The position numbers and the translations under genes are program-made. Positions 21,265-44,864 of a DNA stretch of 64,000 nt are shown here, piece by piece (positions within the stretch are counted from its first letter, which is position 1; every line of letters begins with the position of its first letter). The notes under the pieces are model-generated. The model did not search any database. It saw only the letters and a program-made list of their open reading frames with translations, and had not been told where the DNA came from. The stretch comes from Candidatus Howiella intestinavium (GTDB taxonomy: Bacteria; Bacillota; Clostridia; Oscillospirales; Acutalibacteraceae). The stretch spans positions 19,319 to 83,318 of the forward strand of contig CAJFVX010000021.1 in assembly GCA_904420585.1 (NCBI GenBank), read 5' to 3'.

Positions 21265-21317
21265 TGAAGAAGGGGAAAGGCGGTGTTTGGCGCAAACTGT
21301 TAAAATTTACATATGAG

Positions 21318-21346
21318 TTGACAAACTGCAGGATTTCCTTTATAAT
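21318..21346 (+). promoter_or_regulatory. consensus sigma-A promoter P2
   Basis: TTGACA (21318-21323), 17-nt spacer, TATAAT (21341-21346). About 230 nt upstream of ATG 21576. Confidence 0.65.
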
Positions 21347-21575
21347 TATGAAACAATCCTGTAATAATCTCTACTGGATAAAATGGTGAATTTGTGAATG
21401 TGTGCACGCCCCTTGTTATATGTATGTAAAAGGGGGAACAAGCCCAAACGGGCGGCCTTTGTCCGGGCAGGGAGGAAGTCTAGGGCTAAAGCGGGGTTGC
21501 CGGATGCCTCTCCGGCGGTTTCGCTTTCCATAAATGGACTGAGGAAATCATTATCATGACTGGAGGAAACGAACG

Positions 21576-24500
21576 ATGAGAAAGAGCTTGAGGCGCGGAG
21601 CGTCCCTCTTGGTCTCCTTGTCGCTTTGTGTGTCGGCCTTTGCGGGCCTGACGGCACAGGGTTATGAGGCGACTATCAGCGGCTGGTCGGATGCAATCAG
21701 TTCCGATTATTATTGGCTGCAGAAAAACAACGTGACCGACGAGGATCAAGAGGTAACGCATGCTGCCGTAGCCGATGAACTGAAGTATCAGAATGAAACG
21801 CTGAATTTCAGAATTGGTACGACGAATGACGGAGCCACTTCCTTTACTTTGAACGATTCCTGGAGCAGCATGCTGCATGTTCAGTTTGAAAACTGGCTGG
21901 CTCCGGATGATACGTCGGTTACCGATAATGTAGGCAACCCCTGGGGCCAGACCAATGACCAGGGTCAGATCCGCAAATGGGGTGTTATCACAGTTCCCTT
22001 TATCGGCATGGCCTTTACCTGCAAAGGGCAGATGGCTGCTTCCGCCCCCGATCCGAGCAAGCCGATCCTGGGCAATGAATTTACGATTGATGGCGTTACC
22101 TACCAGCCCATGTGGGACAATGTGCGCATTCTGCAGAATGGCGCGGTAAGCACACAGCAGATGTTCCCCGGCATGAATGCGGAGGGAAATGACATTACCG
22201 CCAATACATTCCGCTATGCCATCGCTGCGTACAATCAGAACAATAAGCGCGCGGGCGCCGACGGCAAGGGCCTGCATGCCGGCTATCCTGTTGGCAACGC
22301 TGCATTGACCGACGATGCCTCTATGATTTATCAGGAACTGCTTGGCCCCGACGGCACGGCTTACCTGGTAGAGGGTGCGGATGTGGCGGAAAGCGGCGCC
22401 TTGACCGGCGCGCAGGTGATTCCCAGCGAGCTTGCCGGGGCCTTTGAGGGCCTGGGCGACAGCATGGATGCGCGGTTGGCTGTTACGGGTGTTCCCCTGG
22501 GCGCATATGCCGACGGTCGGATGGATTTTGCCAACGGCTATTTGACGGCCTCCGGCTTCCACAGCACCACCTGCAGCATCGTAAGCTTCTCCTTTGGTTC
22601 GGCTGAGGCGGCCCCCAGTGTGATTGATGAGGCGAATCACACGGTTACCGCTTATGTGAAGGATGGCACCAACCTTTCTTCTCTGACCCCCGAGGTGGAG
22701 ATCATCGGCAAAAGCTATACTCCCTCCGGTGCCCAGAACTTCAGTTCTCCCGTCACCTATACGGTTACGGCGGCTGCGGGCAATACGCAGGATTATACCG
22801 TGACGGTTATTACCCTGAATGAGGCTACCATTTCCACTTTTGCCATCGGCGATGCGACGGCTACCATTGATCAGGCCAACCGTGAGATCACCATTGCCGT
22901 CCATTCGGATGCCGACCTTTCCAACGTGACGCCCGAAGTGACCTTTGTGGGCAGCGGCGCCAGCATGTCCCCGGCCTCCGGCCTGAACCTGGAGGATTCC
23001 TGGGACAATCCGGTAGAGGTTACCGTCACCGCCGGCTCGGCTACCGCGACCTATACCATCCGGGCGCGTTACCTGAATACGGATAACAGCATCACTTCCT
23101 TTGTTGTTTCGGCCGATCAGTTCAAGTATGCTTGGGGCGACGTGGTTGCAACGATTGACAATGATGCCAAGACCATTAACATGGAATATGCCTGGGGTAA
23201 CTTTACAGGCGATGAGAACAACCCCACTCCCTATGCGCGGGTTTCCGCAGAGGTCACCCTGCCCTCCGGCGCCACCATTTCCCCGGATCCTGCCATTGCG
23301 CGGGATCAGCTGGGCCAGGAATATGTTGTTACCTCCGAGAACGGCGATGAAGCTGTCTATACGGTGCATATCACCCTGGACGACAACAAAATCTTCCCGC
23401 CGGTAGACGACCTTGACCTGTATGCGCAGGATAACTGGGGCCGTTTCAGCGGGGATGCTGAGGCTGCTGAGTTTGAAGCGATTCTGGAAGAGTACAATTA
23501 CCAGCGGTCTCAGGGATTTGACCCCGGCACGCCCAGCGGCGGCGTAAGCAACTGGGACGATTTGCTTTCCCGTCAGCTGTTTGTCAACGGAAGCGGAAAA
23601 AATGATATAATCAATGGCGCTACGGCCATGATCGCGGCCGATGTCAGCTATGGTAAAGCGAATACTTTGAAAAATACGATGGTTCGCGCTTGGCAGATCG
23701 ATGACGTAGTCGATGAAGACGGCATTAAGCACCGCGGCTGGTCTTGGGCCGGCAGCCCGGTGGAGAATGAATTCGTAATGGATAAACTCCATTATCAGCA
23801 GTTCTCCATGAGTTATGGTACCTATGACGACAACGGTAATATTCAGCGCGTGCTGAACGGTGTGGGCAATAGCTATAATGCCGTATCCAACGTTCTGAAG
23901 GAAGAGAATTCTCCTTTCTTTGATTTTGATAATGTGCAGGTCAAGGAGGGAGTACGCAATACCATCCGTGATGCGTACGAGGGCGCCAACAAGTCCGGCA
24001 TTAACCCCGGTATCGCTTTGGACGGCGCGATGAAGTATGATGCGGAGAACAAAATTCTCTACCAGGTCTTCAGCGGAACCGGCGAATACCATTCTACCGT
24101 GCGCGATCGCAACAATAAGACCATCATCATTAAGGGCCTTACTCCCGCTGAGAATGAGGAAGGCGAGATCGAGATGACCTCCAATGGTTCGGCCATCGCC
24201 ATGCTGCCCCGTATTCAGCATGTCTATGAGAATATCGATCTCAGCGGCTCGGAAGCTTATGCCGGTCAGGAGAACGAATACGTTTCGCTGAACCTGGATG
24301 GCTTCGAAGTAAAATACAGCAAGACGCTGGGCATGCCCAACAGCGCGCCGGAAATTCAGGATGACAGCGAAACCGGAAATGGCACCGTGATTATGGACTT
24401 TGCCAAGGGCTGGGTCGAGTGCAAGGCGGATTCGGATGAGGTTATCTGGCACGATGGCAGCCGGCTGAACAATGAAAATCGGATTGAGTCGGTTGAAGCC

Positions 24501-25130
24501 AGCGGCAACGTGGCGGTTGAGAAGGTTGTTGTCAATTCTCTGGATTCGGAGAATCCCAACGAGGAAACCGATTGGCTGGGCAACTCCATCAACATTTACT
24601 TTGCTGAGGGCGAAACGGTTGATTTGACTAATGTCACCATCAACAATATCGTGACTGTGGATCCCAATGCCACCGTGGAGTATAACGGCGAGGCTTTTGT
24701 GCCCGGCACTGCCGTGAACCTGACCTACAGCGCTTTGCTCCAGGTAAATGCTGAGAACGGCGCCAACCGCAGGTACAGCGTTTACGCCTGGCAGGGCGAC
24801 GAGGCGCTGTCTGCTGATGCGCCGGACGATCCCAATCAGGAAATTGTAAATCCGCCCACCGATGACGATCCAAGCGATCCCTCGCAGCCCGGCAACAACA
24901 ATTCCCAGCAGCCTAATGGAAGCAACGGCGGCGGCAATTCGGATGAGGATCCCTATGAGTACGGCTATTATGATGCCAATGGCAAGTGGGTGCCTGTAAC
25001 CAAGGGGTTCTATGAGCAGTGGCTCAGGAGCGGCGGAAACGCTGCCACTGGCGAGGCCGGCGTGGTTGGCGTGGTCCTGCTGACCGCTGCGGCTGCAGGC
25101 GCACTGGTTGTACTGCGCAAGAAGAAATAG
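21576..25130 (+). CDS. 1184-aa cell-surface protein with Ig-like repeats and a C-terminal sorting-signal-like anchor
   Basis: RBS GGAGGAA and a signal peptide (LLVSLSLCVSAFAGLTA). At least three ~85-aa beta-sandwich repeats end in YTVTV, YTIRA or YTVHI. Pro/Asp/Asn linker. C-terminus NAATG + 21 hydrophobic residues + RKKK. Confidence 0.85.
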   Translation: MRKSLRRGASLLVSLSLCVSAFAGLTAQGYEATISGWSDAISSDYYWLQKNNVTDEDQEVTHAAVADELKYQNETLNFRIGTTNDGATSFTLNDSWSSMLHVQFENWLAPDDTSVTDNVGNPWGQTNDQGQIRKWGVITVPFIGMAFTCKGQMAASAPDPSKPILGNEFTIDGVTYQPMWDNVRILQNGAVSTQQMFPGMNAEGNDITANTFRYAIAAYNQNNKRAGADGKGLHAGYPVGNAALTDDASMIYQELLGPDGTAYLVEGADVAESGALTGAQVIPSELAGAFEGLGDSMDARLAVTGVPLGAYADGRMDFANGYLTASGFHSTTCSIVSFSFGSAEAAPSVIDEANHTVTAYVKDGTNLSSLTPEVEIIGKSYTPSGAQNFSSPVTYTVTAAAGNTQDYTVTVITLNEATISTFAIGDATATIDQANREITIAVHSDADLSNVTPEVTFVGSGASMSPASGLNLEDSWDNPVEVTVTAGSATATYTIRARYLNTDNSITSFVVSADQFKYAWGDVVATIDNDAKTINMEYAWGNFTGDENNPTPYARVSAEVTLPSGATISPDPAIARDQLGQEYVVTSENGDEAVYTVHITLDDNKIFPPVDDLDLYAQDNWGRFSGDAEAAEFEAILEEYNYQRSQGFDPGTPSGGVSNWDDLLSRQLFVNGSGKNDIINGATAMIAADVSYGKANTLKNTMVRAWQIDDVVDEDGIKHRGWSWAGSPVENEFVMDKLHYQQFSMSYGTYDDNGNIQRVLNGVGNSYNAVSNVLKEENSPFFDFDNVQVKEGVRNTIRDAYEGANKSGINPGIALDGAMKYDAENKILYQVFSGTGEYHSTVRDRNNKTIIIKGLTPAENEEGEIEMTSNGSAIAMLPRIQHVYENIDLSGSEAYAGQENEYVSLNLDGFEVKYSKTLGMPNSAPEIQDDSETGNGTVIMDFAKGWVECKADSDEVIWHDGSRLNNENRIESVEASGNVAVEKVVVNSLDSENPNEETDWLGNSINIYFAEGETVDLTNVTINNIVTVDPNATVEYNGEAFVPGTAVNLTYSALLQVNAENGANRRYSVYAWQGDEALSADAPDDPNQEIVNPPTDDDPSDPSQPGNNNSQQPNGSNGGGNSDEDPYEYGYYDANGKWVPVTKGFYEQWLRSGGNAATGEAGVVGVVLLTAAAAGALVVLRKKK

Positions 25131-25283: not shown

Positions 25284-26471
25284 ATGAAGAAGTTGGTTTC
25301 GGCAGCCATTTCGGCTGCTCTGGCCCTGACGACCTTGTCCATGGGGCTGATGGCTGGTGCCACGGATGCCAGCCAGGTTGGCGCTATCGGCGACAGCGGT
25401 GTACCTGACGCTTTTAAAGGGAAGGAAGCTGAACTGACCCAGAAGTATAAAGAGGCGTACAACTGGGGCATCACCCTGCATTCCCACAAGGAAAACGACG
25501 GGTTGTTTAATTTCGGCGATGCGTCCGGCGAGCTGGTACATATCTGGTCCGGCACGGATCCGGAAGGCAATGTGTACCAGATCTGCAACCAGGACTTTGA
25601 TAACGGTACTTCTACCGTTTCCAACGCTTTCTCCTACAACAACTGGGCTGCCATTGTCTGCGCGGATCCGGAGACCTTGAATGTAGTTATTATGCGCGAC
25701 GCCGCTGCTGAGTGGTATGCAAAGGGCGGCGGTGTAAACAACTGGAAGTCCGGCAGCCCCACAACCAACCAGTATTGGCGTACGGAAAACGGCGTGCCCG
25801 TCTGCTATCAGCAGTTTGAAAACGGCCATCTGCGCATTGAAGAAGGCGAAGTTTGGTACGCTGAGTTCTACAGCAAAATCGATTTAGGCGACGCTTATCC
25901 CCAGCCCCCGGCTGCCCCGCCGGCCTATGGCGATATCTACACCCCCAATGCGGACGGCTGTACCTGGGAAGAGCCCAAATATCTGCCCTCGAATGTTACA
26001 CCGCCCGATGTCACCACCAATGTGCCTAACAATGAGGTACCCGGTGGTCAGACCGGCGACGATAATCAGAATCCTGCGATCGTTGATCCCAGTCTCCCTG
26101 CAGGGACGGTTGATCCCAACAGCACCACCGCTTCCGGTGCGGCCTCCGGTACGGCCTCCGGCACGGTAAGCGACACTACTGTCTCCGGCAGCACCGTTTC
26201 CGACAACACTGTTTCCGGCAGCACCGTTTCCGGCAGCACCGTTTCCGGCAGCACCACCGGCGGCACTACCACCGTCCGTCAGATGAATGTAGGCGCTACG
26301 GTCGGTATTGTGGTAGCCTGCGTAGTCGTTGTAGGCGCCGGCGCCTTCTGCCTGTACTGGTTCGTACTGCGCAAGAAGAAGGCGGCTGCGGATGGCGTGG
26401 ATGCCGAAGCTGTTGACGAGGCTGCACAGGCCGAGGAGAAGTCGGACGATAAGACCGACGACAAGAAATAA
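25284..26471 (+). CDS. surface protein, paralog family member A (conserved ~200-aa N-module, Thr/Ser linker, TM anchor)
   Basis: RBS AGGAGGAA and a signal peptide. The N-module has NNWAAIVCADPET and PTTNQYWRTENGVPVCYQQFENGHLRIEEG. TVSGS repeats. TM FCLYWFVLRKKK and an acidic tail. Paralogous to 54210-55343 and 55381-56274. Confidence 0.85.
   Translation: MKKLVSAAISAALALTTLSMGLMAGATDASQVGAIGDSGVPDAFKGKEAELTQKYKEAYNWGITLHSHKENDGLFNFGDASGELVHIWSGTDPEGNVYQICNQDFDNGTSTVSNAFSYNNWAAIVCADPETLNVVIMRDAAAEWYAKGGGVNNWKSGSPTTNQYWRTENGVPVCYQQFENGHLRIEEGEVWYAEFYSKIDLGDAYPQPPAAPPAYGDIYTPNADGCTWEEPKYLPSNVTPPDVTTNVPNNEVPGGQTGDDNQNPAIVDPSLPAGTVDPNSTTASGAASGTASGTVSDTTVSGSTVSDNTVSGSTVSGSTVSGSTTGGTTTVRQMNVGATVGIVVACVVVVGAGAFCLYWFVLRKKKAAADGVDAEAVDEAAQAEEKSDDKTDDKK
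26178..26252 (+). repeat. 15-bp in-frame tandem repeat x5 (TVSGS/TVSDN)
   Basis: Units begin at 26178, 26193, 26208, 26223 and 26238. The last two are identical (accgtttccggcagc). Confidence 0.9.
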
Positions 26472-26589
26472 GCGGGAGTCCGGGTAAAGCCTTGTATTTC
26501 CCCTTATGACCCAAGCATAATGAATACCGGGCGGCGCTTCGCGCTGCGGACGCGCCGCCCGATATCCTGCGCCGGCACGCCGGCAGGAT

Positions 26590-26618
26590 TTGCACAAAAG
26601 TGCATATATGATTATATT
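26590..26618 (+). promoter_or_regulatory. candidate promoter of the GH125/GH76 block with overlapping palindrome
   Basis: TTGCAC (26590-26595), 17-nt spacer, TATATT (26613-26618). The palindrome TGCAC-AAAA-GTGCA (26591-26604) overlaps the -35. Confidence 0.55.
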
Positions 26619-26635
26619 GCCGGGAGTGTTGTAAG

Positions 26636-27931
26636 TTGGCAGAAGTTAAATTCCCTGAGCTGAACGCCAGGATCGATAAGCTGGCGGAGGGTATCCACAA
26701 TCAGAAACTCCGCAACATGTTTAAAAACTGTTTCTATTCCACCCTGGAAACCACCACCAAACTCCACGACGACGGGTGCACCTATGTCTTTACCGGGGAT
26801 ATTCCCGCCATGTGGCTGCGGGATTCCAGCGCCCAGGTCATGCACTATCTGCGGGTGTGTGACTGCCCCGGTATCAAGGAGGCCATTGCCGGCCTTGTCA
26901 AGCTGCAGATGCGTTATATCGCCCTGGACCCCTACGCCAACGCCTTCAACGAGGAGGCCAACGGCGCCGGCCACGGCGGCGATACGACAAACTTCAACGA
27001 GAACAAAGACTGGATCTGGGAGCGCAAGTATGAAATCGATTCCCTGTGCTACCCGGTCTGGATTTCCTATAAATACTGGAAGAAAACCGGCGACACGTCC
27101 GTTTTTGACGAGCAGTATAAAAAGAGCACGGGCATGATTCTGGATCTGTTCCGGGTGGAGCAGCATCACGAGGAGAAGTCCCCCTACCGGTTCCAGCGGT
27201 TCAACTGCCCCGAAACCGACACCCTCCCCCGGGAGGGCAAGGGGGCGGAGGTGGCCTACACCGGCATGACCTGGTCGGGCTTCCGCCCCAGTGACGACGC
27301 CTGTGTTTACGGGTATCTGGTACCCTCCAATATGTTTGCCGTTGTGATTTTGGGGTATCTGGAAGAGATTTATGCGGACGTGTACCATGACGCCGACATG
27401 GCTGCCTCGGCCAAGGCGCTGAGGGACGAAATCGAGGCCGGCATTCAGAAGTACGCCGTATTCGAGGACCCCGATTGCGGGAAGGTTTACGCCTATGAGG
27501 TGGACGGGAAGGGCAACGCCGTCTTTATGGACGACGCCAATGTCCCCAGTCTGCTGTCCCTGCCCTATCTGGGGTATTGCGATATGGACGATCCCATTTA
27601 CCAGAACACCCGCAAATATATCCTTTCCAAAAAGAACCCCTACTACTACGAGGGTTCCTTCGCCAAGGGCATCGGCAGCCCCCACACCCCGCCGGGCTAC
27701 ATCTGGCACATCGCCCTGGTCATGGAGGCCATGACCTGCCACGACGACGCGGAGAAGGCCAAGGTTCTGAACACCATTATGGCCTGCGACGGCGGTACCG
27801 AAGTGATGCACGAGGGGTTTGACGCCAATGATCCCACCGTATATACCCGCGAATGGTTTGCGTGGGCCAACTCCCTTCTGGCGTATTTTATTCTGGAAGA
27901 GATTGACAAGGTCAATACATTCGTGAAATAA
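26636..27931 (+). CDS. GH125 exo-alpha-1,6-mannosidase (no signal peptide)
   Basis: TTG start 10 nt after GGGAG. GH125/DUF1237 motifs FTGDIPAMWLRDSSAQV and HEGFDANDPTVYTREWFAWANSL. Confidence 0.9.
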   Translation: MAEVKFPELNARIDKLAEGIHNQKLRNMFKNCFYSTLETTTKLHDDGCTYVFTGDIPAMWLRDSSAQVMHYLRVCDCPGIKEAIAGLVKLQMRYIALDPYANAFNEEANGAGHGGDTTNFNENKDWIWERKYEIDSLCYPVWISYKYWKKTGDTSVFDEQYKKSTGMILDLFRVEQHHEEKSPYRFQRFNCPETDTLPREGKGAEVAYTGMTWSGFRPSDDACVYGYLVPSNMFAVVILGYLEEIYADVYHDADMAASAKALRDEIEAGIQKYAVFEDPDCGKVYAYEVDGKGNAVFMDDANVPSLLSLPYLGYCDMDDPIYQNTRKYILSKKNPYYYEGSFAKGIGSPHTPPGYIWHIALVMEAMTCHDDAEKAKVLNTIMACDGGTEVMHEGFDANDPTVYTREWFAWANSLLAYFILEEIDKVNTFVK

Positions 27932-27939
27932 AGCAAAGG

Positions 27940-29034
27940 ATGGTGAGGCGCATGAACCACGCCGACTGTTTAAACTTTGATTTTAAGGCTGCCGGCCACG
28001 AGCTGCTGGCCACAATCCGGAAGGGCTTTTGGAACCCGGTGGGATATTTTGCCAAGGAAAAGCTTATCGGTACCGACAAGGCTTTCTTCTGGCCCTACGG
28101 CGGCCATCTGGAGGCGGTTGCCGCCCAGCTGGAGAATTATCCCGACTGTGCCAACGCCAAGCAGATGTATCTGGATACCCTGGTGGGCGTCCTGCCCTAC
28201 ACGGTCTGCCGGGACGACGGGCATCTGGCCTATGCGGCTGCCAACGGCGGCGGCGGAGATGTCTTTTATGACGACAATGTGTGGATTGCCATCATCTATC
28301 TCAACGCTTCCCATATTTTGAAAGAGCCCCGTTATCTGGAGCTGTCTGAAAGGGTAACCGAGTTCTGCTACTCCGGCTGGGACGAGAAGCTGGGCGGCGG
28401 TGTCTACTGGCAGGAGAACCACAAGACCAGCAAGAACACCTGTATCAACGCCCCCCTGGCCAAGGTGTCGGCCCAGCTTTACAAGGAGACGGGCAAGCAG
28501 AAGTATCTGGATTGGGCCGTCAAGCTGTATGACTGGACCAAGGAGAAGCTGATGGATCCCAAGGATTACCTCTATTGGGACAACATCAACCTGGAGGGCA
28601 AAATCCAGGAATGGAAGTTTGCCTACAACACGGGCTGCATGATTGGCGCGGCGGCGCATCTCTACGATATAACCAAGGATGAGAAGTATCTGACCGATGC
28701 GAAAAATTCCGCCATGTCCGCCCTGAACGGCGGCTTTGGCCGGTGGGACGACAAGGGGGATTACCACTTCACCGACCCCAACCCCTGGTTCCTGACCTGG
28801 CTGTTGGACGGCTATATGGCCCTGTATCCCTTCGATTCCAACGATGAATATATCGAAAGCTTTGCCTCGGCGGTTTCCTATTGCGTCCGCAATACGAAAA
28901 ATGCCAGCGGCTTCGTACATAGGGATTGGAAATCCAAGGATATGCCGGATGCGGATGTGCACGTGCTGGATCAGTCGGGTACGGCGCGGGTCCTCTTCGA
29001 CGTGCAGACCTGGAAGGACACCTACGGGAAGTAG
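27940..29034 (+). CDS. GH76 alpha-1,6-mannanase, paralog 1 (no signal peptide)
   Basis: FYDDNVWIAIIYLNA (catalytic DD), GGVYWQENHKTSKNTCINAP, YNTGCMIGAAAHLY. The start could also be ATG 27952. Confidence 0.88.
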   Translation: MVRRMNHADCLNFDFKAAGHELLATIRKGFWNPVGYFAKEKLIGTDKAFFWPYGGHLEAVAAQLENYPDCANAKQMYLDTLVGVLPYTVCRDDGHLAYAAANGGGGDVFYDDNVWIAIIYLNASHILKEPRYLELSERVTEFCYSGWDEKLGGGVYWQENHKTSKNTCINAPLAKVSAQLYKETGKQKYLDWAVKLYDWTKEKLMDPKDYLYWDNINLEGKIQEWKFAYNTGCMIGAAAHLYDITKDEKYLTDAKNSAMSALNGGFGRWDDKGDYHFTDPNPWFLTWLLDGYMALYPFDSNDEYIESFASAVSYCVRNTKNASGFVHRDWKSKDMPDADVHVLDQSGTARVLFDVQTWKDTYGK

Positions 29035-29112
29035 GTTCCGTTTATTGGGCTTTATGCTCCGGGCATGGAGCGGTTGGTATATATTTTAAAATGAGGAAAA
29101 GGAGATTCAGCT

Positions 29113-30735
29113 ATGCGTAAACGTATTGTCACGGCGTTGTTGGCTGCGGCCATGATGCTGTCGCTTTTGGCGGGATGCTATACGGAGACGACCGTGCCGG
29201 TGGAAAGCACGGATACCAATGTCACCACCTCCGCCCAGAGCGAGACGCCCTCTTCGTCTGAGGCGACCACCACCTCCCAGACGACGACTACATCCCAGAC
29301 CACCACTTCCACCAGTTCTACTTCCTCCAAAAAGAGCCCCACCACCGCCAGGTTCCCCTACAGCCTGATTAAGCGGCTGAAGAGCAGTTCCGCTACGGGC
29401 GGCGGCACCGGCAGTACGGACGGCGGAAGTAGCGGCGGTACGACCACTTCGGACGGTGGGACCCAGGTTAACGAAAACGAGTTCTTTTACGATGAATACC
29501 GTGCCTATACCCAGGTTGCCGACCGCATTATGAGCAGTGCAAAGCGGGATATCAACCGGCAGAATCCCACCCAGGGCGGTTTCTGGCGGAATAACGGGAC
29601 CAATTTGGCTTCGGATTTGTTAAAGATGGGCGATGATTTGAACGGTACAACCCTGTGGCCTTATGCTACCTACATGGAGGGTGTGGGCGCGCAGATTTCC
29701 TCCGCCGGCCTGGCTCAGTCCTATGATGCCAAGCAGGAGTATGCCAAGCTTCTGAAGAATGTTCTGAATTATACGGACAGCGAGTACAATTCGGCCGACA
29801 GCCTGGGCCTCGGCTGCGTACAGGGTTCTGGCCCCGGCACCCAGATTTTTAACGACGATAATGTGTGGGTCGCCATGGAGTGGATGAACGCTTACCAGCT
29901 GCTGGGCGACAACCAGTATCTCACCCTGGCCAAGCGCAACCTGAACTTTATCTTCGAAAGCTGGGATACCACTGTTTTGGACGGCGGTATCTGGTGGTGC
30001 CGTCCCGGACGTGAAGGCAAGGAGCCTCTGCAGAAGAATGCCTGTATCAACGCCCCTTACGCTTGGGCTGCGGCTGAGATGTATGAGCTGACCGGTGAGC
30101 AGTCTTATTTAAATAACGCTATCCAGGCCTATACATGGACCAAAAATACGCTGTGGGATAAGAATAAGAATGTTATTCTTGATAAATATTATCAGGTTTC
30201 AACTGGCTATGAGTTGGATGGCAGCACCTATGCCTATAACACCGGCTGTATGATCGGCGCGGCTGCCATGCTGTATAAAGTCACCGGCGATGAACAGTAC
30301 CGGACGGATGCGTATGCTTTGGCGGAAGGTGCCTCAACCACCTTCTATTCTGAACGCATCAGGATTCGCCCCACCGGCGAGGATGCCCCTGAAGGCGCCA
30401 CGGGTTATTATTTTGATTCGCCCTCTCCCTATAGTTCTTCCAACCTGCTTTGGTTCCAGAGCAACCTGGCCAAGGGTATTTTTACTTTGTATAAAATCGA
30501 TACCGAAAAGGGCAACACAGCTGATCCCAAGTATGCCCGCATCGTGTTGAACGCGACTGCCGTGGGTGCTGTTAACGCCGGCCGCGCGGACAACTATATC
30601 AACCCGGATATGAGGAGCGCAGAGGCGCCGGCACTGGCTGATATTACGCCTACCGGCGAAGGCGCTGCCGCCCGGCTGATGTATATGTGCGATGAGTTCC
30701 TGAAGGATTATCCCCGGTTTGACCGGATTGGCTAA
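29113..30735 (+). CDS. GH76 alpha-1,6-mannanase lipoprotein, paralog 2
   Basis: RBS AAGGAGA. Lipobox LLAGC. Thr/Ser/Gly-rich linker. FNDDNVWVAMEWMNAY, GGIWWCRPG...KNACINAP, YNTGCMIGAAAMLY. Confidence 0.9.
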   Translation: MRKRIVTALLAAAMMLSLLAGCYTETTVPVESTDTNVTTSAQSETPSSSEATTTSQTTTTSQTTTSTSSTSSKKSPTTARFPYSLIKRLKSSSATGGGTGSTDGGSSGGTTTSDGGTQVNENEFFYDEYRAYTQVADRIMSSAKRDINRQNPTQGGFWRNNGTNLASDLLKMGDDLNGTTLWPYATYMEGVGAQISSAGLAQSYDAKQEYAKLLKNVLNYTDSEYNSADSLGLGCVQGSGPGTQIFNDDNVWVAMEWMNAYQLLGDNQYLTLAKRNLNFIFESWDTTVLDGGIWWCRPGREGKEPLQKNACINAPYAWAAAEMYELTGEQSYLNNAIQAYTWTKNTLWDKNKNVILDKYYQVSTGYELDGSTYAYNTGCMIGAAAMLYKVTGDEQYRTDAYALAEGASTTFYSERIRIRPTGEDAPEGATGYYFDSPSPYSSSNLLWFQSNLAKGIFTLYKIDTEKGNTADPKYARIVLNATAVGAVNAGRADNYINPDMRSAEAPALADITPTGEGAAARLMYMCDEFLKDYPRFDRIG

Positions 30736-30751
30736 AAGCATGTAAGCAAAA

Positions 30752-30812
30752 GGGTATTGTCCCGGGATACTGTTATCTCGGGACAATACCCAGGTTTATT
30801 CCTTTTTCTTTG
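30752..30812 (+). terminator. hairpin plus T-rich tract after GH76 paralog 2
   Basis: gggtattgtcccg-N14-cgggacaataccc followed by aggtttattcctttttcttt. Confidence 0.55.
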
Positions 30813-30846
30813 AGCGGCATTGAGATTTTGAAAGGGGTTATGCCTT

Positions 30847-32127
30847 CTGTTTAAAAAGATTACGGCAGCCAGTCTATCTGCCATTTTGGTATTGGGCGCT
30901 GCGGGCTGCGGTGCGGATACCGGTACGGAAAGTTCCAGCAGCGCATCTGCCGGAACCAGCACATCTACCGCTTCCTCTGTGGCGGATGTGGCCATAACCG
31001 ATTTTCAAAATTTCAATGGTTACGGCGACCGCGGCGACGCCATTATGGAGTATTTTAGCCAGAGTTTTTGGAAAGCCGACGGCCGCATGAAGAGCGAACA
31101 GGCAAAAAGCGATTCGGTAACGCTCTGGGGCTATGCTTCCTACATGGAAGCCTGCGGTGAATGGCTGGCCCTGCATCCGGACGACGCCGAGGTAAAGGCC
31201 GAATATATAAAGGTTTTGGAGAATGTGGAGTATTACCGCACGGTATGGCGTACCGATGACCTGCAGGTCTATCAGTGCGTACCGGTAGAGAGCAAGGCCG
31301 AGTGCTTTTTTGATGACGACGTTTGGGTTGTGCTGGAGTTTATCCACGCCTATCAGCTCTTAGGAGAGCAAAAGTGGCTGGATAATGCCAAGGGAACCAT
31401 AGAGTTCTGCTATTCCGGCTGGGATGACAAGCAGGGCGGCGGCGTCTACTGGAAGGAAGATGATGTGGGCACGGAGAACGCCAGCAAAAATACCTGCATC
31501 AACGCCCCCCTGGCCCTGGCCTCCGCCGAACTCTACGAGATCACCCAGGATCAGCAGTATCTGGACTGGGCCATCCGGCTGTACGATTGGACCAAGGCGA
31601 CCCTGATGGATCCCAAGGATTCCCTGATGTGGGATAATATTATGGCGGATTCGGGCAGTGTGACCCGGACGAAATGGACTTACAATACGGGCAATATGAT
31701 CGCCTCGGCCGCCATGCTCTATAAAATCACCGGCCAGGAGTCCTACCTCACCGATGCCAAGACCATGGCGGAATCCGCCTATACAACCTTTGGCACCGAA
31801 GTGGTTAAGGATGATCCTGCCCAATCCTATTACATCGCCGGCGAGTCCAATCCCTGGTTCCAGTCATCTTTGTTGAAGGGCTACATAAAGCTGTACGAAG
31901 TGGACAGTTCCAACGCAACCTATGTAAAGAGTTTTTTGACCGCGTTGGCCTACGCCTGCTCCAAGAATAAGGATTTTCGCGGATTCCTGGACTCGGATTG
32001 GAAAACGCGGGATGAGGTCGGCGTTATCACCAACCCGGATCTGCTGAACCAGTCGGGTAACGCCCGGGTGCTGCTCATGCTGCAAAACTGGAAGAACGCC
32101 CATCCGGACGCCCTGGGCCAGGCTTAA
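30847..32127 (+). CDS. GH76 alpha-1,6-mannanase lipoprotein, paralog 3 (start codon uncertain)
   Basis: The frame opens at 30832. CTG 30847 (9 nt after GAAAGGGG) gives the lipoprotein signal MFKKITAASLSAILVLGAAGC. The track start TTG 30886 would remove that signal. FFDDDVWVVLEFIHAY, GGVYWKED...KNTCINAP, YNTGNMIASAAMLY. Confidence 0.8.
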   Translation: MFKKITAASLSAILVLGAAGCGADTGTESSSSASAGTSTSTASSVADVAITDFQNFNGYGDRGDAIMEYFSQSFWKADGRMKSEQAKSDSVTLWGYASYMEACGEWLALHPDDAEVKAEYIKVLENVEYYRTVWRTDDLQVYQCVPVESKAECFFDDDVWVVLEFIHAYQLLGEQKWLDNAKGTIEFCYSGWDDKQGGGVYWKEDDVGTENASKNTCINAPLALASAELYEITQDQQYLDWAIRLYDWTKATLMDPKDSLMWDNIMADSGSVTRTKWTYNTGNMIASAAMLYKITGQESYLTDAKTMAESAYTTFGTEVVKDDPAQSYYIAGESNPWFQSSLLKGYIKLYEVDSSNATYVKSFLTALAYACSKNKDFRGFLDSDWKTRDEVGVITNPDLLNQSGNARVLLMLQNWKNAHPDALGQA

Positions 32128-32177
32128 TCAGGCATCCGCCGAGGAAATTCGGTTGATGATAAAAATTTTAGAAAGGG

Positions 32178-33563
32178 ATGTTATGCGTGAACAAGAAAAG
32201 AATCATCAGCGCCCTGCTGTGCGCCGCTATGATTGTCAGCGCGGGAGTTATGGCTTCTTCCTGCGGCGACAACGACGGCACCCCCAGTGGCAGCACTGAC
32301 AGTTCCGACGAATGGGTTCTTGCTGACAAGAACGTCACTATGTGGGGAGGCTTCGGCGAGGACTACTACGAGAATTTCAAGCGGGATAATCCGGATATCA
32401 ATCTGAATTATGCCACCTCCTCTGACAACAGCCTGGTGACCCTGGCTGCGGCAATCCAGTCGGGCAACCAGCCGGATATGTTCTACACCAACAATGCCGC
32501 CAATGCGCCTCTGGGCGATGCGGTGGGCCGTGACCTGCTGCTGCCCCTGGAAGGCTATTTTGACCGGGATCCCAACTATAAGTGGGAGGATCTGCCCGAA
32601 TGGTATGATATGTTTGTCAAGTATACGGGCAACGATGGGCAGGATCATATTTACGCCGTCTACACCGACGTGTCGGTAGCCTGCTTGGTCTGGAACAAGG
32701 ATATGTTTGAAGCCAATGGCCTGGATCCCGATAAGCCGCCGACAACCTGGTCTGAAATGCAGACCATGGCTTCTCAGCTGAACAAAACCGACTCCAACGG
32801 CATGCTGAGCCAGGCCGGTTTCACCTCCTATAACTGGTGGTTCCAGCATTGGCGCCTGACCTATGGCACGACCTATCAGGATCCCCTGACTGGCGAGCCC
32901 AACATCAATACCCCCGAGATGCAGAATGTCATGAACTTCTTAAAGTCCTTCCCCGAATCCTTCGGCGGCGCCGACCGGCTGCCCGAGACGGTGAACTGGG
33001 GCGCAGGCAACGTGGGTATGGCTATTGCCGATACGGGTTATTCCCAGAACATGGTTAATGACTTTGAGACCGGTATCGCCATTATGCCCAAGCCTGACGA
33101 TAAGGAAGGCGACCAGGTGGTTGCCGGTTATGCCTGGCAGTGGTACGGCGTACCCAAGGGCTGTAAGAACCCCGACGGCGGCTGGACGGTAGCCCGCTGG
33201 GCTGTGACCGGCGGCTGCGCCGGCGTACAGGCCCGTGCCGCTCTGGAGAATCCCGAGACCTGGGTGCCTGTCTATCAGGTACACAAGCCCTCCAAGCAGG
33301 AACTGTTCGATCGGTATCTGGAAGGCTGCCGGGAGGATATCCAGGAAATCCTGATGAAGCGCGAGGAGATCTTTGATCAGATTTCCATTGCCCGCCCGGT
33401 TAATGCGCCTATCAATGCCAACTGGGAAAGCGCTCTGGAAACCAAGTGCGTTGAGATCATCAACGGCGAAACGACTGTTACCGATGGTTTGGATTATATT
33501 CAGAAAGTTGGTATGCAGTTGTACGAGGATTATCGTTCGGATGTACTGGGCATAACCGAATAA
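32178..33563 (+). CDS. ABC sugar transporter substrate-binding lipoprotein (family 1)
   Basis: Signal with Cys (VMASSCGDN). SBP_bac_1-type features are PDMFY, MPKPD, and a mid-protein YAWQWYGVPKGCKNPDGGW segment. Confidence 0.85.
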   Translation: MLCVNKKRIISALLCAAMIVSAGVMASSCGDNDGTPSGSTDSSDEWVLADKNVTMWGGFGEDYYENFKRDNPDINLNYATSSDNSLVTLAAAIQSGNQPDMFYTNNAANAPLGDAVGRDLLLPLEGYFDRDPNYKWEDLPEWYDMFVKYTGNDGQDHIYAVYTDVSVACLVWNKDMFEANGLDPDKPPTTWSEMQTMASQLNKTDSNGMLSQAGFTSYNWWFQHWRLTYGTTYQDPLTGEPNINTPEMQNVMNFLKSFPESFGGADRLPETVNWGAGNVGMAIADTGYSQNMVNDFETGIAIMPKPDDKEGDQVVAGYAWQWYGVPKGCKNPDGGWTVARWAVTGGCAGVQARAALENPETWVPVYQVHKPSKQELFDRYLEGCREDIQEILMKREEIFDQISIARPVNAPINANWESALETKCVEIINGETTVTDGLDYIQKVGMQLYEDYRSDVLGITE

Positions 33564-33597
33564 GTGCCAGTTGCAGTATATGCGACAGTGAAGGTGG

Positions 33598-33628
33598 CGC
33601 CCGGCCACGATGGCCGGGCGTCCCTTTT
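33598..33628 (+). terminator. rho-independent terminator after the SBP gene
   Basis: cgcccggcca-cga-tggccgggcg (10-bp stem) followed by tcccTTTT. Confidence 0.75.
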
Positions 33629-33661
33629 AGCGGTAGAATCTGTAAGTGAGGAGAAAAGTTT

Positions 33662-34918
33662 ATGAAACACGGGCAGCCCTGCGGCACCCCTGTTGTGGGA
33701 AGACTGCATCGCTGGTTGTGCCTGCTATTGGCTTTGGCGCTGTCGGCGACAGCGCTGGCTTCCTGTGAACAGACCAGCGCGTCGGAAGGCGGCGCTTCCT
33801 TACAGGCCGGTTCTGCTGCCAGCACGGTACAAATCTATATTGACGAGGAGAAGGCCCCAGCCCTTCGGGCCGATTCCGAGAAGGGGATTTGGGAAAAGCG
33901 GGCGGATGCCACCCAGGCTTTTATGCGGGAAAACTTCTTCGGCGCCTATGATATGTACCAAAACAAATACCCCCTCACAAGACAGAGGGACAATGCGACC
34001 TTTCACTACTGGATCCAGGCGCAGGTTTTGGATTCTATTGTGGACGCCTACATCCGCACAGGCGATGCAGTCTATGCCCAGCGGGCCAAGGAACTGATCG
34101 CTGCGGTGAAAAAGCGGAATGGCAATCATATTACCAATGATTTATACGACGATATGGGATGGATGGCCAACGCGGCCTTCCGGCTGTATCAGGCCACAGG
34201 CGACCAAGATTTGTGGAGCGACATCGACCTTTTATACCGGACCATTGCCGACGGATGGAATGAGGCCAGCGGCGGCATTGCCTGGCGGCGGGATCAAATG
34301 TACTACCGCAATTCCCCGTCCAACGGCCCTGCCTGCATTCTGGCGGCCCGGCTGTACCAGCATACCGGGGAGCAGGAATATTTGGACATGGCGCTCCGGA
34401 TTTTTGACTGGTGGACGGAAACCCTGGTGGATCCGGAAACCGGACTGGTTTGGGACGGCATCAACCGGCAAATGGACGGAAAGATAGACAAGAACTGGCA
34501 GTTTACCTATTGCCAGGGGGTATACATTGGCGCCTGCGTGGAATTATACCGCATCACCAATGAACAGGATTATATTGACAAGGCGGTGCGGACCGCCGAT
34601 TACGCGCTGGATACCATGCTGGAGAGCGGGATTCTCCGTTCCGAAGGTGGCGGGGACGGCGGCGCCTTCAAGGGCATATTCTGCCGGTATCTGACGCAGC
34701 TGATATTGACTACATCGGTCAATCGGGAACTGTACTGCAGGGTGTTGGAGAGGAACGGGGAAGCGCTTTGGGCGAATATCCCCAGCGAGGAGGAGCCGAT
34801 TTGCAGCGAAAAATGGAGCGACAAGCCCGGCAAATCGGTAGAACTCCAGGTGCAGTCCAGCGGGCTGGCCCTGCTGGAAAGTTTGGCCGTTTTAAATAAA
34901 ATGGGTTATATTTCATAA
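33662..34918 (+). CDS. GH76 alpha-1,6-mannanase lipoprotein, paralog 4 (divergent)
   Basis: RBS GAGGAG. Lipobox LASC. LYDDMGWMANAAFRLY, GGIAWRRDQ...SPSNGPA, TYCQGVYIGACVELY. Confidence 0.85.
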   Translation: MKHGQPCGTPVVGRLHRWLCLLLALALSATALASCEQTSASEGGASLQAGSAASTVQIYIDEEKAPALRADSEKGIWEKRADATQAFMRENFFGAYDMYQNKYPLTRQRDNATFHYWIQAQVLDSIVDAYIRTGDAVYAQRAKELIAAVKKRNGNHITNDLYDDMGWMANAAFRLYQATGDQDLWSDIDLLYRTIADGWNEASGGIAWRRDQMYYRNSPSNGPACILAARLYQHTGEQEYLDMALRIFDWWTETLVDPETGLVWDGINRQMDGKIDKNWQFTYCQGVYIGACVELYRITNEQDYIDKAVRTADYALDTMLESGILRSEGGGDGGAFKGIFCRYLTQLILTTSVNRELYCRVLERNGEALWANIPSEEEPICSEKWSDKPGKSVELQVQSSGLALLESLAVLNKMGYIS

Positions 34919-35015: not shown

Positions 35016-35044
35016 TTACGGATTTTGTGCAAAATGCGCATAAT
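35016..35044 (+). promoter_or_regulatory. candidate promoter of the seven-gene transporter operon
   Basis: TTACGG, 17-nt spacer, CATAAT. The spacer contains TTTTGTGCAA (35023-35032). An alternative TTGACG-N18-TATACT lies at 34926-34955. Confidence 0.4.
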
Positions 35045-35196: not shown

Positions 35197-38100
35197 ATGG
35201 AATTCAGGAAAAAAGGCTACATGCGTCTGGCCGCTTTGCTGCTGACATTCTGTCTTCTGACTACGGGCGCAGGCGTAAACGCCTGGGCTGCGGAAGGGGA
35301 CGAAGACGGCGCCGCGGCGGCTGCGGATGCGGGGACGGGGACGTCAGGGCTGAACTCGGCCCTGGAGGAACTGTTGCAGCATGAGGATTCCGGCGAGGAT
35401 GAAAACGCCGCAGAGGGCACCGATCTGGAATACCTTGACGTGGAAGCCACATATGAATCGATCGAGAGCTACGGCCTGACTGAGGCGGATACCATCACCC
35501 TGCAGGCCGACGCCGCTGCCAAGACGGACGGGACTGCGCCGACCTTTACCCAGACCGACCCTGCCTATGAGGGTGGGATGGCTGTTTTGTCGGACGAAGC
35601 CACCGGCTCTTTGTCCTGGCAGGTGACCGTGCCCAAGACGGGACTATACGACATCCATATCGACTACCTCCCTACCGTGGATGATAAATCGGACATCCAA
35701 CGGAAGATTGCTTTCGACGGGGCGCTGCCCTTTGACGAAAGTGGTAACATCGGCTTCCTGCGGGCCTGGACCGAAGAGGCCGACCCGGTGCTGGATGCCA
35801 ACGGCGATGAAATCAAGCCCAAGCTGGCCCAGGTGGCCGGATGGGATACCAATAAAGTGACCGACGTAGACGGCATGATTGAGACCCCCTTCCGCTATCT
35901 GCTGACCGCCGGCACCCATACCCTTACGCTGGAGTATGTCAACGCCGACATGTATGTGGGCGATATCCGGCTGGTTCCCTCAGAAGAATACAAGACCTAC
36001 GCCGAGGTTAAGGCGGAATATGAAGCCAACGGCTACACCGAGTATACGGGCGAGCCTGTCCGCCGGGAGGGCGAGGAGTCGGAATACCGCTCCAGCCAGA
36101 TCCTCCGCCGGGAGGCCAATTCCGATCCCGGCACCACCCCGTATGTCCGCGGCCATGTGAAGCTGAATACCATCGGCGGCTACAACTGGCGCGCAGGCAA
36201 CCAGCTGGTGGAATGGGTCATCGACGTGCCGGCAGATGGGCTGTATAAGCTGAATATGCGCATCTTCCAGAACCACGGCGAAGGCCTGAACGTACATCGG
36301 CAGATCACCATTGACGGCGAGGTGCCCTTTGCAGAGGTGGCCGCCTACGCATTTGGCTATTCCTCCAAGTGGCAGAACGAGACCATCTGCGACGCCGAGG
36401 GCAATCCCTACCTTTTCTATCTGACGGCGGGACAGCATGTGCTGGGCGTGCAGGTAAAGATGGGCGATTCCGCAGACGTCATCAACGGGCTGCTGGATAT
36501 CAATAATGATATGTCCCAGCTTATCCGGAATATCACCCGGGTGACCGGTTCGGAGCCCGACGCCAACTTCGACTATCAGCTGGAGGCCAAGGTGCCTTCC
36601 CTCATGGAGCAGATGACCGACCTGCGGGATCGGTACCGCTATTATGTGGACTTCCTGACCACCCATTCCCGCAAGGTCCCCACCCTGGCCAACTCCCTGA
36701 ATACGGCGGCGGATCAGCTGGACTACCTGATTGAGCGGCCCAAGAAAATCCCCGCCAAGCTGGATGAGCTGACTACAACCCAGACCAGCGTCTCCACCTG
36801 GTATTACAACATCCAGGACCAGCCTATGATGATCGACTATGTGCAGTTTGTGGCGCCGGCCGAAGAGGTCAAGATGCCCAAGAGCAGCATCTGGGAAAAG
36901 ATCGCCGGCACCTGTGTGAACTTTGCGCTTTCCTTTGTCAAGGATTACGACAGCGTTATGTATGTGAGCACCACCGGTGAAGAACTCTTCGAGGGTGAAG
37001 CGCTGGACGTCTGGGTGGCCCGCAGCAAGGAAATGTGTGAAATCATCCAGCAGATGGCTTCGGAGGAATTCACCCCCGAATCCCATATCGGCGTTGCGGT
37101 CAACGTGCTCCCCAGCGGTTCGGTGGGCGCCGTCGGCAGCGTCAGCCCCCTGATGCTGGCGGTTATCTCGGGCAATGTGCCGGATATCGCCCTGGGCAGT
37201 GACTCCCAGACCCCTGTGGAGCTGGCCATCCGCGGCGCGGCCTATGACCTGAAGAATTTTGAGGGGTATGACGAGGTGGCGTCCTGGTTCCTGCCCGGCG
37301 CCCTGGAGCCTATGTCCTATCAGCAGAAGGATGCGTCCGAGCCCGGCCAGTACGCCCTGCCCGAAAACATGGACTTTAAGGTCATGTTCTACCGGACGGA
37401 TATCATGGAGGAGATCGGCGCCAAGGTGCCCGATACCTGGACGGAACTCTACAACGAGGTCCTGCCCATCCTGGATCAGAACGGCATGATGTTCTATATG
37501 GCGTCGGATTACGCCCCCTTCCTCTTCCAGCTGGGCGGCGACTACTACAACGAGGACAAGACCGCCACGGCTTTGGACAGCGATGTAGCTTACCAGGCCT
37601 TCCTGCAGTGGACCCGGAACTACACGGTCTACGACTTTGAGACCACCGCCGATATCTACAACCATTTCCGTATCGGCGATATCCCGCTGGTCATCGGCGG
37701 CTATAATGATTACCTGAAGATTATGTACGCGGCGCCTGACCTGTACGGCCGCTGGATGATTGCCCCCATCCCCGGCACCGAGCAGGAGGACGGCACCATC
37801 GACCGGACGGCCGGCGGCGCCTCCACCACCCTGATGATGTTCACCGATTCCAAGCGGAAGGAAGATGCCTGGGAGTTCGCCAAGTGGTGGATGTCCGCGG
37901 ATGTGCAGTACAACTTCTCCACCGAGGTGGAAGCCACCATGGGCCAGGAGGCCCGTTGGAATTCGGCCAATGTGGAAGCCTTCTTCCGGCTGCCCTGGCA
38001 GAACGACCATGTGCCGGTCTTCCAGGAGATTTTCAGCCAGTTTGAAAACCAGCCCAATGCGCTGGGCGGCTATTACACCGCGCGTAACGTAACCAACGCC

Positions 38101-38232: not shown

Positions 38233-38271
38233 CCCCGGGTTCATTACATTAGGAAAAAAGGTGAGATGTAA

Positions 38272-39246: not shown

Positions 39247-39257
39247 GGGGGACGACG

Positions 39258-40148: not shown

Positions 40149-40161
40149 GGGGGGGAAGACA

Positions 40162-44849: not shown

Positions 44850-44864
44850 GAGGAGGCGAACGGA

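Follow-up and report, generated by a model that had tools for sequence, protein, structure and literature searches.

Enzymes of glycoside hydrolase family GH125 are exo-alpha-1,6-mannosidases, and those of Clostridium perfringens and Streptococcus pneumoniae are tied to the breakdown of N-glycans. Only 11 enzymes of family GH76 have been characterised, as alpha-1,6-mannanases or transglycosylases (PMC11233589). The closest described systems that combine both families are the mannan polysaccharide utilisation loci (PULs) of Bacteroides thetaiotaomicron, MAN-PUL1/2/3, and among 177 gut genomes no Firmicute was found with GH38, GH92 and GH76 together (Cuskin 2015, PMC4978465). Alpha-mannan is also not among the substrates predicted in Table 2 of the study that describes gpPULs (PULs from Gram-positive bacteria) for Roseburia and Eubacterium rectale (Sheridan 2016, PMC5320581). 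A September 2026 review of glycoside transporters cites alpha-mannan uptake for Bacteroides only, and our literature search found no described Firmicute GH76/GH125 locus. Here we analyse such a locus in a 64-kb stretch of contig CAJFVX010000021.1 from Candidatus Howiella intestinavium (Clostridia), the whole of which is called the window below. An original prediction had placed an alpha-1,6-mannan utilisation block at 26590-34918 of this window.

The conserved locus, catabolic as judged from its genes, is larger than the predicted block. It occupies about 21.1-46.8 kb of the window (about 25 kb) and takes in two surface proteins upstream and a transporter cassette downstream. It is probably dedicated to alpha-1,6-linked mannan or manno-oligosaccharides, with the fungal cell-wall mannan backbone as the likeliest source, which would be cut at the surface, imported by an ATP-binding cassette (ABC) system and digested in the cytoplasm. 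The model of the original prediction is thus partly supported and, with the amendments given below, is the best reading of the sequence.

The window was compared with related loci and contigs, each given an L-number. Six metagenome contigs carry an identical GH125 sequence. When the species representatives of GTDB were scanned, four related loci came up, all from Clostridia metagenome-assembled genomes (MAGs), with GH125 proteins 78-92% identical to that of the window: HRGM_Genome_3484, a Candidatus Howiella sp., an anaerobic-digester MAG (L009) and ABMPRH_142. When the window proteins were searched against these four loci by tblastn, a single conserved gene order emerged, each locus showing the part covered by its contig: PFOR, a large surface protein (about 1180 amino acids, aa), a small one (about 390 aa), GH125, GH76a, one to three GH76 lipoproteins, a solute-binding protein (SBP), GH76d and a large SBP (about 1000 aa). 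Four further relatives found through homologs (L011, L016, L018 and L015/L019) have the same order, L015/L019 in a reduced form. The order, continued by the cassette, or the contig-covered part of it, is kept in L001, L007-L011, L016 and L018, among which GH125 identity is 78-100%, and in total the synteny holds in at least nine related Clostridia MAGs. This conservation indicates a stable chromosomal locus of the lineage and not a single-genome oddity. The host is a spore former (Gpr and SpoIIP are encoded in the window) of about 58% G+C with dockerin-bearing proteins, and belongs to an uncultured Clostridia lineage related to Candidatus Howiella, of gut or digester source.

Six plus-strand open reading frames (ORFs) lie within 26.6-34.9 kb. 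Pfam assigned them to one GH125, four GH76 and one family-1 SBP, as originally predicted, and all the motifs quoted by the prediction are present in the translations. The GH125 gene (26636-27931) matches PF06824 with an E-value of 2e-158 over profile positions 1-414 of 414 and carries the motifs TGDIPAMWLRDS and WFAWAN. Its product matches C. perfringens GH125 (CpGH125) in the PDB (E 5e-154), with about 60% of the aligned residues identical as counted from the alignment. The alignment block to 2nvp and 5m7i is ungapped and retains D220 and E393 of CpGH125, the 5m7i chain itself having an N at 220. The ORF begins with TTG 26636, preceded by the ribosome-binding site GGGAG. Position 26590, from which the block had been drawn, was rejected as the start; its frame meets a stop before 26636 and the position belongs to a promoter -35 hexamer. 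A rule-based scan found no hydrophobic N-terminus on either GH125 or GH76a, and GH125 is predicted to be a cytoplasmic exo-alpha-1,6-mannosidase.

GH76a (27940-29034) begins 8 nucleotides (nt) past the GH125 stop and matches PF03663 with an E-value of 1e-40; in gene calls it opens at 27952 and has 360 aa. Like GH125, it has no signal peptide and is a predicted cytoplasmic enzyme, in this case an endo-alpha-1,6-mannanase. The other three GH76 genes encode lipoproteins. GH76b (29113-30735, Pfam E 4e-35) has a Ser/Thr-rich tether of about 100 aa, and its lipobox was given as LLAGC by the original prediction and as LAGC by a regular-expression scan. GH76c (30847-32127, Pfam E 1e-42 over 30886-32127) has the lipobox AAGC and the signal peptide MFKKITAASLSAILVLGAAGC, and GH76d (33662-34918, Pfam E 2e-50) has LASC. 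These three lipoboxes had been predicted and are present, as is one on the SBP (ASSC); GH76c has its signal peptide only if the protein is read from CTG 30847.

Over the (alpha/alpha)6 catalytic domain all four proteins match the family profile far above its Pfam cut-off, 25.9 bits, and all match Aman6 of Bacillus circulans with E-values of 5e-23 to 5e-25. The catalytic Asp-Asp pair, D124/D125 in Aman6 (PMC11233589), is intact in each (YDDNVW, NDDNVW, FDDDVW and YDDMGW). In GH76a, GH76b and GH76c the pair aligns with that of BT2949 (4mu9), the nearest solved relative of all three, matched by GH76a at E 9e-53. The pair of GH76d aligns with Lin0763 (3k7x, E 6e-71) and ShGH76 (6shd, E 5e-66), which it matches over the whole catalytic domain. 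These alignments bear out the catalytic assignments of the original prediction. The strength of the Pfam and PDB matches argues that the family assignments are not chance similarities, and by family and intact catalytic pair all four GH76 proteins are predicted endo-alpha-1,6-mannanases.

When only ATG, GTG and TTG are allowed as starts, GH76c begins at 30886 with MVLGAAGC, a truncated form from which no export would be possible. An in-frame CTG upstream, at 30847, restores the signal peptide and has a GGGG ribosome-binding site 9 nt before it. L001, L007 and L010 share the CTG and the sequence upstream of it; in L008 the equivalent codon is GTG. Because this arrangement is conserved in relatives, CTG 30847 is taken to be a genuine non-canonical start. 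We also considered a frameshift or sequencing error, since an ATG lies out of frame 7 nt upstream of the signal-peptide frame; this was rejected on the same conservation. That ATG opens a conserved out-of-frame mini-ORF of four codons (ATG NNT TCT GNT TAA) which overlaps the GH76c start, at 30840-30849 in the window, about 7006-7015 in L007 and about 9761-9770 in L010.

The original prediction had called the four GH76 genes an unusual expansion. Four genes are present, and a multiple set is conserved in the lineage with two to five copies: five in the digester MAG L009 (12782-17036) and two in L015 (5147-7632). However, recent tandem amplification was rejected, as GH76a, GH76b and GH76c are only 30-42% identical to each other and GH76d aligns to them over only about 120-160 residues. 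Read from these alignments and from the export signals, the four are old paralogs of two subfamilies, predicted to work in two compartments.

The nature of the GH125 raises the question of whether the block instead finishes high-mannose N-glycans of host or diet, as GH125 does in S. pneumoniae and C. perfringens. The identity of about 60% to CpGH125 would fit, and Firmicute GH125 genes are usually assigned to loci for N-glycans, one example being Ros-10 of Roseburia as set out in the gpPUL study (PMC5320581). Against this, no GH18 or GH85 endo-beta-N-acetylglucosaminidase and no GH38, GH92, GH20, GH2 or GH130 was found among the scanned ORFs of the window. The characterised GH76 enzymes act on chains of consecutive alpha-1,6-mannose, which N-glycan cores do not contain. 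Four GH76 enzymes, three of them extracellular, would make no sense for such a core. In addition, the most distant relative, L015/L019, keeps two GH76 genes on a contig of about 26 kb on which no GH125 was seen. We consider the N-glycan explanation very remote.

Between GH76c and GH76d lies the gene for SBP461 (32178-33563), a family-1 solute-binding lipoprotein (SBP_bac_1, E 1e-20) predicted to be a manno-oligosaccharide receptor. Its best PDB match, MBP1 (4r9f, E 3e-13), is distant. By Pfam the whole locus encodes two binding proteins and two complete permease pairs. The second binding protein and all four permeases belong to the downstream cassette, which comprises seven plus-strand genes at 35197-46778 with operon-tight spacing of -1 to 39 nt. 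The first encodes a large secreted binding protein (35197-38232; 1011 aa from ATG 35197) with weak CBM35-like matches, to a carbohydrate-binding module family, in its N-terminal 600 aa or so and a C-terminal SBP_bac_1 domain. It was called at the same 1011 aa in L001, and its PDB match, to Lin1841, is distant. Reading the ligand of either binding protein from structure was set aside, the nearest solved structures being too distant. A first ABC permease pair follows (324 and 296 aa, 38272-40148) and a second closes the cassette (319 and 304 aa, 44865-46778), both matching BPD_transp_1 and having transmembrane segments, multiple ones in the first pair.

Two proteins are encoded between the permease pairs. 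One is a membrane protein (40162-42288) with a signal or anchor, an extracellular NHL beta-propeller, TPR repeats and a Yip1 domain of five to six transmembrane segments; it has the same position in the cassettes of L011-L014, L015/L019 and L018. It plausibly serves as scaffold of the import module, a role proposed because the large binding protein and the DUF5696 protein have cleavable signal peptides and no anchor. The other is a secreted DUF5696 protein (42288-44849, Pfam E 7e-144). A PDB sequence search with DUF5696 found nothing and only the fold search was informative. Its AlphaFold2 model (mean predicted local distance difference test, pLDDT, 87) has an N-terminal beta-sandwich, a (beta/alpha)8 barrel and a C-terminal beta-sandwich, with a helical insertion of about 125 residues (about 181-305). 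Foldseek placed GH129 first (5opq, 8rzk and 5wzq; E 1e-29 to 1e-22, probability 1.0, template-modelling score 0.68-0.73 normalised to the target), then GH101, GH36 and GH31. Four acidic residues, D502, D659, D718 and E754, recur in 30-36 of the 36 homologs. A glycosidase-like fold is therefore predicted for DUF5696 from this model. The family is large: when 1.84 billion representatives were searched with a profile, 4041 clusters at 50% identity matched with E <= 1e-30.

These seven genes recur, in unchanged order, around the DUF5696 homologs of L011, L012, L013, L014, L018 and L019. Their spread includes Oscillospirales-like Clostridia, Lachnospiraceae and Paenibacillus, and the carbohydrate-active enzymes (CAZymes) beside them differ. 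In L012 the neighbours are GH51-like and sulfatase genes. Those in L013 (Paenibacillus eucommiae) are a GH67N/DUF4838 gene, a histidine kinase and an AraC-type response regulator, and those in L014 (an Acetatifactor MAG) are GH43, GH106, GH128-like and GH30 genes. Its place beside unrelated CAZymes marks the cassette as generic, with substrate-specific genes joined on to it. Our literature search found no paper on DUF5696 or on a cassette of DUF5696, NHL-Yip1 and four permeases. One might go further and regard the cassette as a general, undescribed Gram-positive machine for glycan capture and import, its surface complex doing a job comparable to that of the Bacteroidota SusC/D utilisome. The mannan genes would then be a substrate-specific add-on, in which LGFP-like capture proteins together with tethered GH76 enzymes provide the specialisation for alpha-1,6-mannan. 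This broader proposal is tentative and, as we judge it, rather doubtful.

Upstream of GH125 are two plus-strand genes for surface proteins. The first, surf1184 (21576-25130, 1184 aa), matches Pfam DUF5018 and has transmembrane-like segments at its termini. It begins with a signal peptide and an N-terminal domain, followed by three Ig-like domains of DUF5018, a domain that the second protein also has, a beta-sandwich, a linker of low complexity and, at the C-terminus, a membrane anchor. Full-length homologs are limited to the lineage. The second, surf395 (25284-26471), consists of a signal peptide, a domain of about 160 aa, a Pro/Ser/Thr-rich linker and a membrane anchor (transmembrane segment 339-357). 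Its domain is homologous to residues 615-760 or so of surf1184 (hhalign against surf1184 610-960: probability 94.5%, E 8e-8). BLASTP between the two proteins gave nothing meaningful, the kinship being visible only by profile-profile comparison. The pattern W..GG.N..G.P..NQYW..YQ.F.NG is conserved in seven surf395 homologs. The surf genes are syntenic with GH76 genes in every relative, including the reduced L015, and are absent from the cassette loci with other CAZymes (L012, L013 and L014). We infer that surf1184 and surf395 are candidate substrate-capture or surface glycan-binding proteins.

The surf proteins also raise the possibility of a different natural substrate. With the same enzymology, the locus could act on the alpha-1,6-mannan core of lipomannan or lipoarabinomannan (LM/LAM) from Actinobacteria of guts and digesters, Corynebacteriales and their relatives, with LGFP-like domains docking onto the actinobacterial envelope. 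In Actinobacteria and their phages LGFP is known as a module that binds cell walls. Weak matches to LGFP (PF08310) were found in surf395 (E 0.13) and in three of 12 surf1184 homologs (best E 0.006); none of them reaches the 22-bit cut-off of the family. The AlphaFold2 model of surf1184, of moderate confidence (pLDDT 71.5), had two kinds of match in Foldseek. Its Ig-like domains matched the levan utilisome of B. thetaiotaomicron (chain 8aa2_G). It also matched, at E 4e-5, the C-terminal domain of MytA (6swz), the mycoloyltransferase A of C. glutamicum, which domain we take to be one of LGFP repeats. Among GH76 enzymes, LamH cleaves LM/LAM and is active only on undecorated alpha-1,6-mannan (PMC11233589), and the debranching enzymes that branched yeast mannan requires were not found in the locus. 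However, the LGFP similarity is weak, LGFP repeats have no defined ligand, and neither arabinanase nor lipase genes accompany the locus. ShGH76, the closest characterised relative of GH76d, comes from a cluster that its authors link to fungal alpha-mannan (PMC9213526). An actinobacterial substrate thus appears unlikely, and the fungal mannan backbone is kept as the probable one.

A search for words common to the intergenic regions uncovered a shared palindrome. Upstream of the surface-protein operon it is the operator-like site TTTTGTGCAAGGTGCAC (21084-21100), an exact match to TTTTGTGCA-N3-TGCAC. A second site, TTTTGTGCAAAATGCGC, lies at 35023-35039 in the leader of the transporter cassette. 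A variant, the inverted repeat TGCAC-AAAA-GTGCA (TGCAC-TTTT-GTGCA on the other strand) at 26591-26604, overlaps the -35 hexamer of the GH125 promoter, and the 13-mer CACTTTTGTGCAA is common to the GH125 promoter site and the site at 21081. At up to two mismatches the palindrome has three matches in the window against 0.37 expected, a number reached in none of 100 shuffles. The site upstream of the surf gene is kept in L008 (4592, a perfect 29-bp palindrome), L009 (4964), L016 and L018, and in L010 the large binding protein has an equivalent site, TTTTGTGCAGAGTGCAC (14319), upstream of it. Where the palindrome stands with respect to the promoter varies: far upstream, over the -35 hexamer or within the leader. 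The presence of the palindrome at three promoter regions and in relatives supports a single regulon over all three modules and suggests that one regulator controls the whole set.

The nearest regulator gene, of the AraC family (49186-49986, minus strand), is three unrelated genes away from the cassette. AraC proteins usually bind direct repeats. As the site is a palindrome and no ortholog was detectable beside the related loci, this gene is unsupported as the regulator of the locus. It is nonetheless kept as a candidate, since AraC-type genes flank the cassette in L013, L014 and L019; in L015/L019 the AraC-family gene after the cassette is accompanied by a Y1 transposase fragment.

Two plus-strand sigma-70-type promoters precede surf1184 at 21238-21346, TTGACA-N16-TATAAT and TTGACA-N17-TATAAT, each a 12/12 match to consensus. 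The second (TTGACAAA...TATAAT) and the ribosome-binding site GACTGGAGGAA are invariant in six species. The leader between this second promoter and surf1184 (about 230 nt, 21346-21575) is GC-rich and partly conserved in L010 and L018, and has no Rfam match. Promoter-like sites were also found before GH125 and before the cassette. Near GH125 the promoter scan gave overlapping 9/12 matches at 26589-26618 and 26591-26618, and the register read from the sequence is TTGCAC-N17-TATATT at 26590-26618 on the plus strand. An intrinsic terminator-like hairpin with an 18-bp stem and a T-rich tail (30752-30791, plus strand) follows GH76b and separates two transcription units.

GH76 enzymes with endogenous, non-nutritional roles exist (PMC11233589; PMC12295086), such as mycobacterial LamH and the fungal transglycosylases Dfg5/Dcw1. 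By analogy, the exported GH76 enzymes could remodel or release a mannose glycopolymer of the organism's own envelope, with the importer and the cytoplasmic enzymes recycling the fragments. The strong promoters of the surf operon, which look constitutive, and a locus devoid of a sugar-responsive regulator gene are in line with such a role. On the other hand, the scanned ORFs of the window yielded no gene for a glycosyltransferase or for mannan synthesis. Clostridia are not known to make alpha-1,6-mannans. Binding proteins, permeases, a cytoplasmic exo-enzyme and surface binders form the architecture of a catabolic locus, and elsewhere the cassette accompanies clearly catabolic CAZymes. A role in the host's own envelope is for these reasons highly unlikely.

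If the locus does serve the uptake of an alpha-1,6-mannan backbone, four steps can be proposed. Polymer would be captured by surf1184 and surf395 through their shared, lineage-specific and weakly LGFP-like domain, surf1184 also having Ig-like stalk domains as in Bacteroides surface glycan-binding proteins. The lipoproteins GH76b, GH76c and GH76d, on Ser/Thr-rich tethers of differing length, would cut the backbone outside the cell. SBP461, the CBM-bearing binding protein of about 1000 aa, or both would hand the oligosaccharides to the two permease pairs, energised by an ATPase encoded elsewhere. In the cytoplasm GH76a would shorten them and GH125 would release mannose. The palindrome at the three main promoters would place the set under a single regulator. 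The division between surface GH76 and cytoplasmic enzymes had been part of the original prediction, and it agrees with the lipoboxes on the one side and the absence of export signals on the other. An ABC importer, also predicted, is present, but its permeases lie outside the block, at 38272-46778, in a cassette that is not specific to mannan.

Several observations weigh against this mechanism, the weak point of which is the substrate. Enzymes acting on alpha-1,2 or alpha-1,3 side chains or on mannose-phosphate (GH92, GH38 and GH99) were not found among the scanned ORFs of the window or in the locus flanks of the relatives. Native branched yeast mannan would consequently be poorly accessible, unless the genes are elsewhere or other organisms debranch it. 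Within the locus there is no mannose-catabolic gene, neither locus nor cassette has an ATPase gene, and no regulator gene lies within 21.1-46.8 kb. For both binding proteins the nearest solved relatives are remote and have other sugars as ligands. A binding role for the surf proteins draws on weak fold and profile similarity, and only synteny connects the generic cassette to mannan.

The composition and the relatives of the genes may say something of their origin. G+C content at third codon positions (GC3) is 0.66-0.70 in the exported, mannan-specific genes (surf1184, surf395, GH76b, GH76c, GH76d and SBP461), compared with 0.76-0.81 in GH125, GH76a and the cassette and 0.75-0.87 in flanking housekeeping genes. 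The lower values of the exported genes may point to a foreign origin. Orthologs of GH76a (>53% identity, about 360 aa) are limited to the lineage. Of the next-best relatives the few named ones are Bacteroidota (Paludibacter and Prevotella, 36-38%), and one that was inspected adjoins a TonB-dependent receptor. Horizontal transfer from Bacteroidota is only hinted at, by these nearest named or contextual relatives of GH76a together with the GC3 difference.

Other genes of the window include a GH31 enzyme of 1486 aa (8087-12547, plus strand) that carries CBM6/CBM35 modules and Big_2 domains and has at its C-terminus a dockerin-like repeat, which was read from the sequence and not by Pfam. Pfam dockerin type I matches occur in a CHAP-domain protein (64-1311, plus strand) and in another ORF (55381-56313, minus strand). 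The dockerin-bearing proteins may indicate a cellulosome-type assembly in this organism. An ORF of 519 aa (12638-14197, minus strand) with one predicted membrane segment and no Pfam match adjoins an XRE-family helix-turn-helix gene (14181-14477). Just downstream of the cassette is a maltose-O-acetyltransferase-like (Mac/hexapeptide) gene (47979-48593, minus strand), whose counterpart in L011 (14699-15325, plus strand), likewise directly after the cassette, is 72% identical and in the opposite orientation. Rfam at the gathering threshold had no match in the whole window, and hence neither a riboswitch nor any known leader came up; a tRNA search of the window with ARAGORN was likewise empty; and NCBIfam gave no informative name for any protein of the locus.

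The locus had been presented as a Firmicute counterpart of the B. thetaiotaomicron mannan PULs. Like MAN-PUL1/2/3 (PMC4978465), it has surface GH76 enzymes, an inner-compartment GH76 encoded side by side with GH125, import before final hydrolysis and surface proteins with Ig-like domains of the DUF5018 type, so the parallel of adjacent GH125 and GH76 genes is real. Unlike them, it would import over a single membrane by ABC transport without SusC/SusD, and a test for a Bacteroidetes-type PUL found no Plug, TonB_dep_Rec or SusD match among the scanned ORFs of the window. Its surface enzymes are Gram-positive lipoproteins and its final steps would be cytoplasmic, not periplasmic. Side-chain enzymes of a yeast-mannan system as defined by Cuskin 2015 (GH92, GH38 and GH99 besides GH76) were not found among the scanned ORFs of the 64 kb or in the relatives' flanks, and the locus has neither a side-chain phosphatase nor a hybrid two-component sensor. 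Without debranching enzymes, the locus is a counterpart of the backbone-degrading part only of the yeast-mannan PULs. What it adds to the B. thetaiotaomicron scheme are the LGFP-like surface proteins and the DUF5696/NHL-Yip1 cassette.

Like the gpPULs of Roseburia and E. rectale (Sheridan 2016, PMC5320581), the locus clusters CAZymes with an ABC sugar importer and has no Sus homologs. Of the three elements in the gpPUL definition, degradative enzymes (four GH76 and GH125) and transport (two binding proteins and four permeases) are there, and a regulator is not. Unlike the simple SBP and two permeases of gpPULs, the window has a seven-gene cassette with four permeases, an SBP of about 1000 aa, NHL/TPR/Yip1 and DUF5696. 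GH125 of C. perfringens (CPE0426) and of S. pneumoniae shares with the window enzyme the catalytic Asp/Glu, the lack of a signal peptide and about 60% aligned identity; in the window, in contrast, it is accompanied by four GH76 genes, and the scanned ORFs include none for N-glycan enzymes. Aman6 (4bok, 5agd) is a Firmicute endo-alpha-1,6-mannanase, as the window GH76 enzymes are predicted to be; the latter are closer to BT2949 (a, b and c) or Lin0763 (d). Aman6 is a free secreted enzyme, and no uptake locus dedicated to it came up in our literature search. Lin0763 of Listeria innocua (3k7x) is, to our knowledge, a structural-genomics structure without a described function. It and ShGH76 of Salegentibacter sp. 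Hel_I_6 (PMC9213526) belong to the same GH76 subfamily as GH76d. ShGH76 comes from a member of the Bacteroidota, whereas GH76d is a tethered lipoprotein whose gene has that of a binding protein on one side and an ABC cassette on the other.

Gut alpha-mannan use is now credited to a few species of Bacteroides and Parabacteroides, and a Clostridial backbone locus, if true, would add a second phylum, with a bearing on yeast-derived feed additives, gut fungi and cross-feeding. The four diverged GH76 enzymes, each with a defined predicted cellular location, offer testable specificities, and the locus gives a defined substrate context for the function of the widespread DUF5696/NHL-Yip1/four-permease cassette. 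In its predicted model DUF5696 shares the three-domain architecture and (beta/alpha)8 barrel of the GH129, GH101 and GH36 retaining alpha-glycosidases; it differs from them in its sequence (9-12% identity), its helical insertion and its constant place between permease genes. Compared with these known systems, the enzymes of the locus are ordinary members of known families and the generic cassette is the more novel element.

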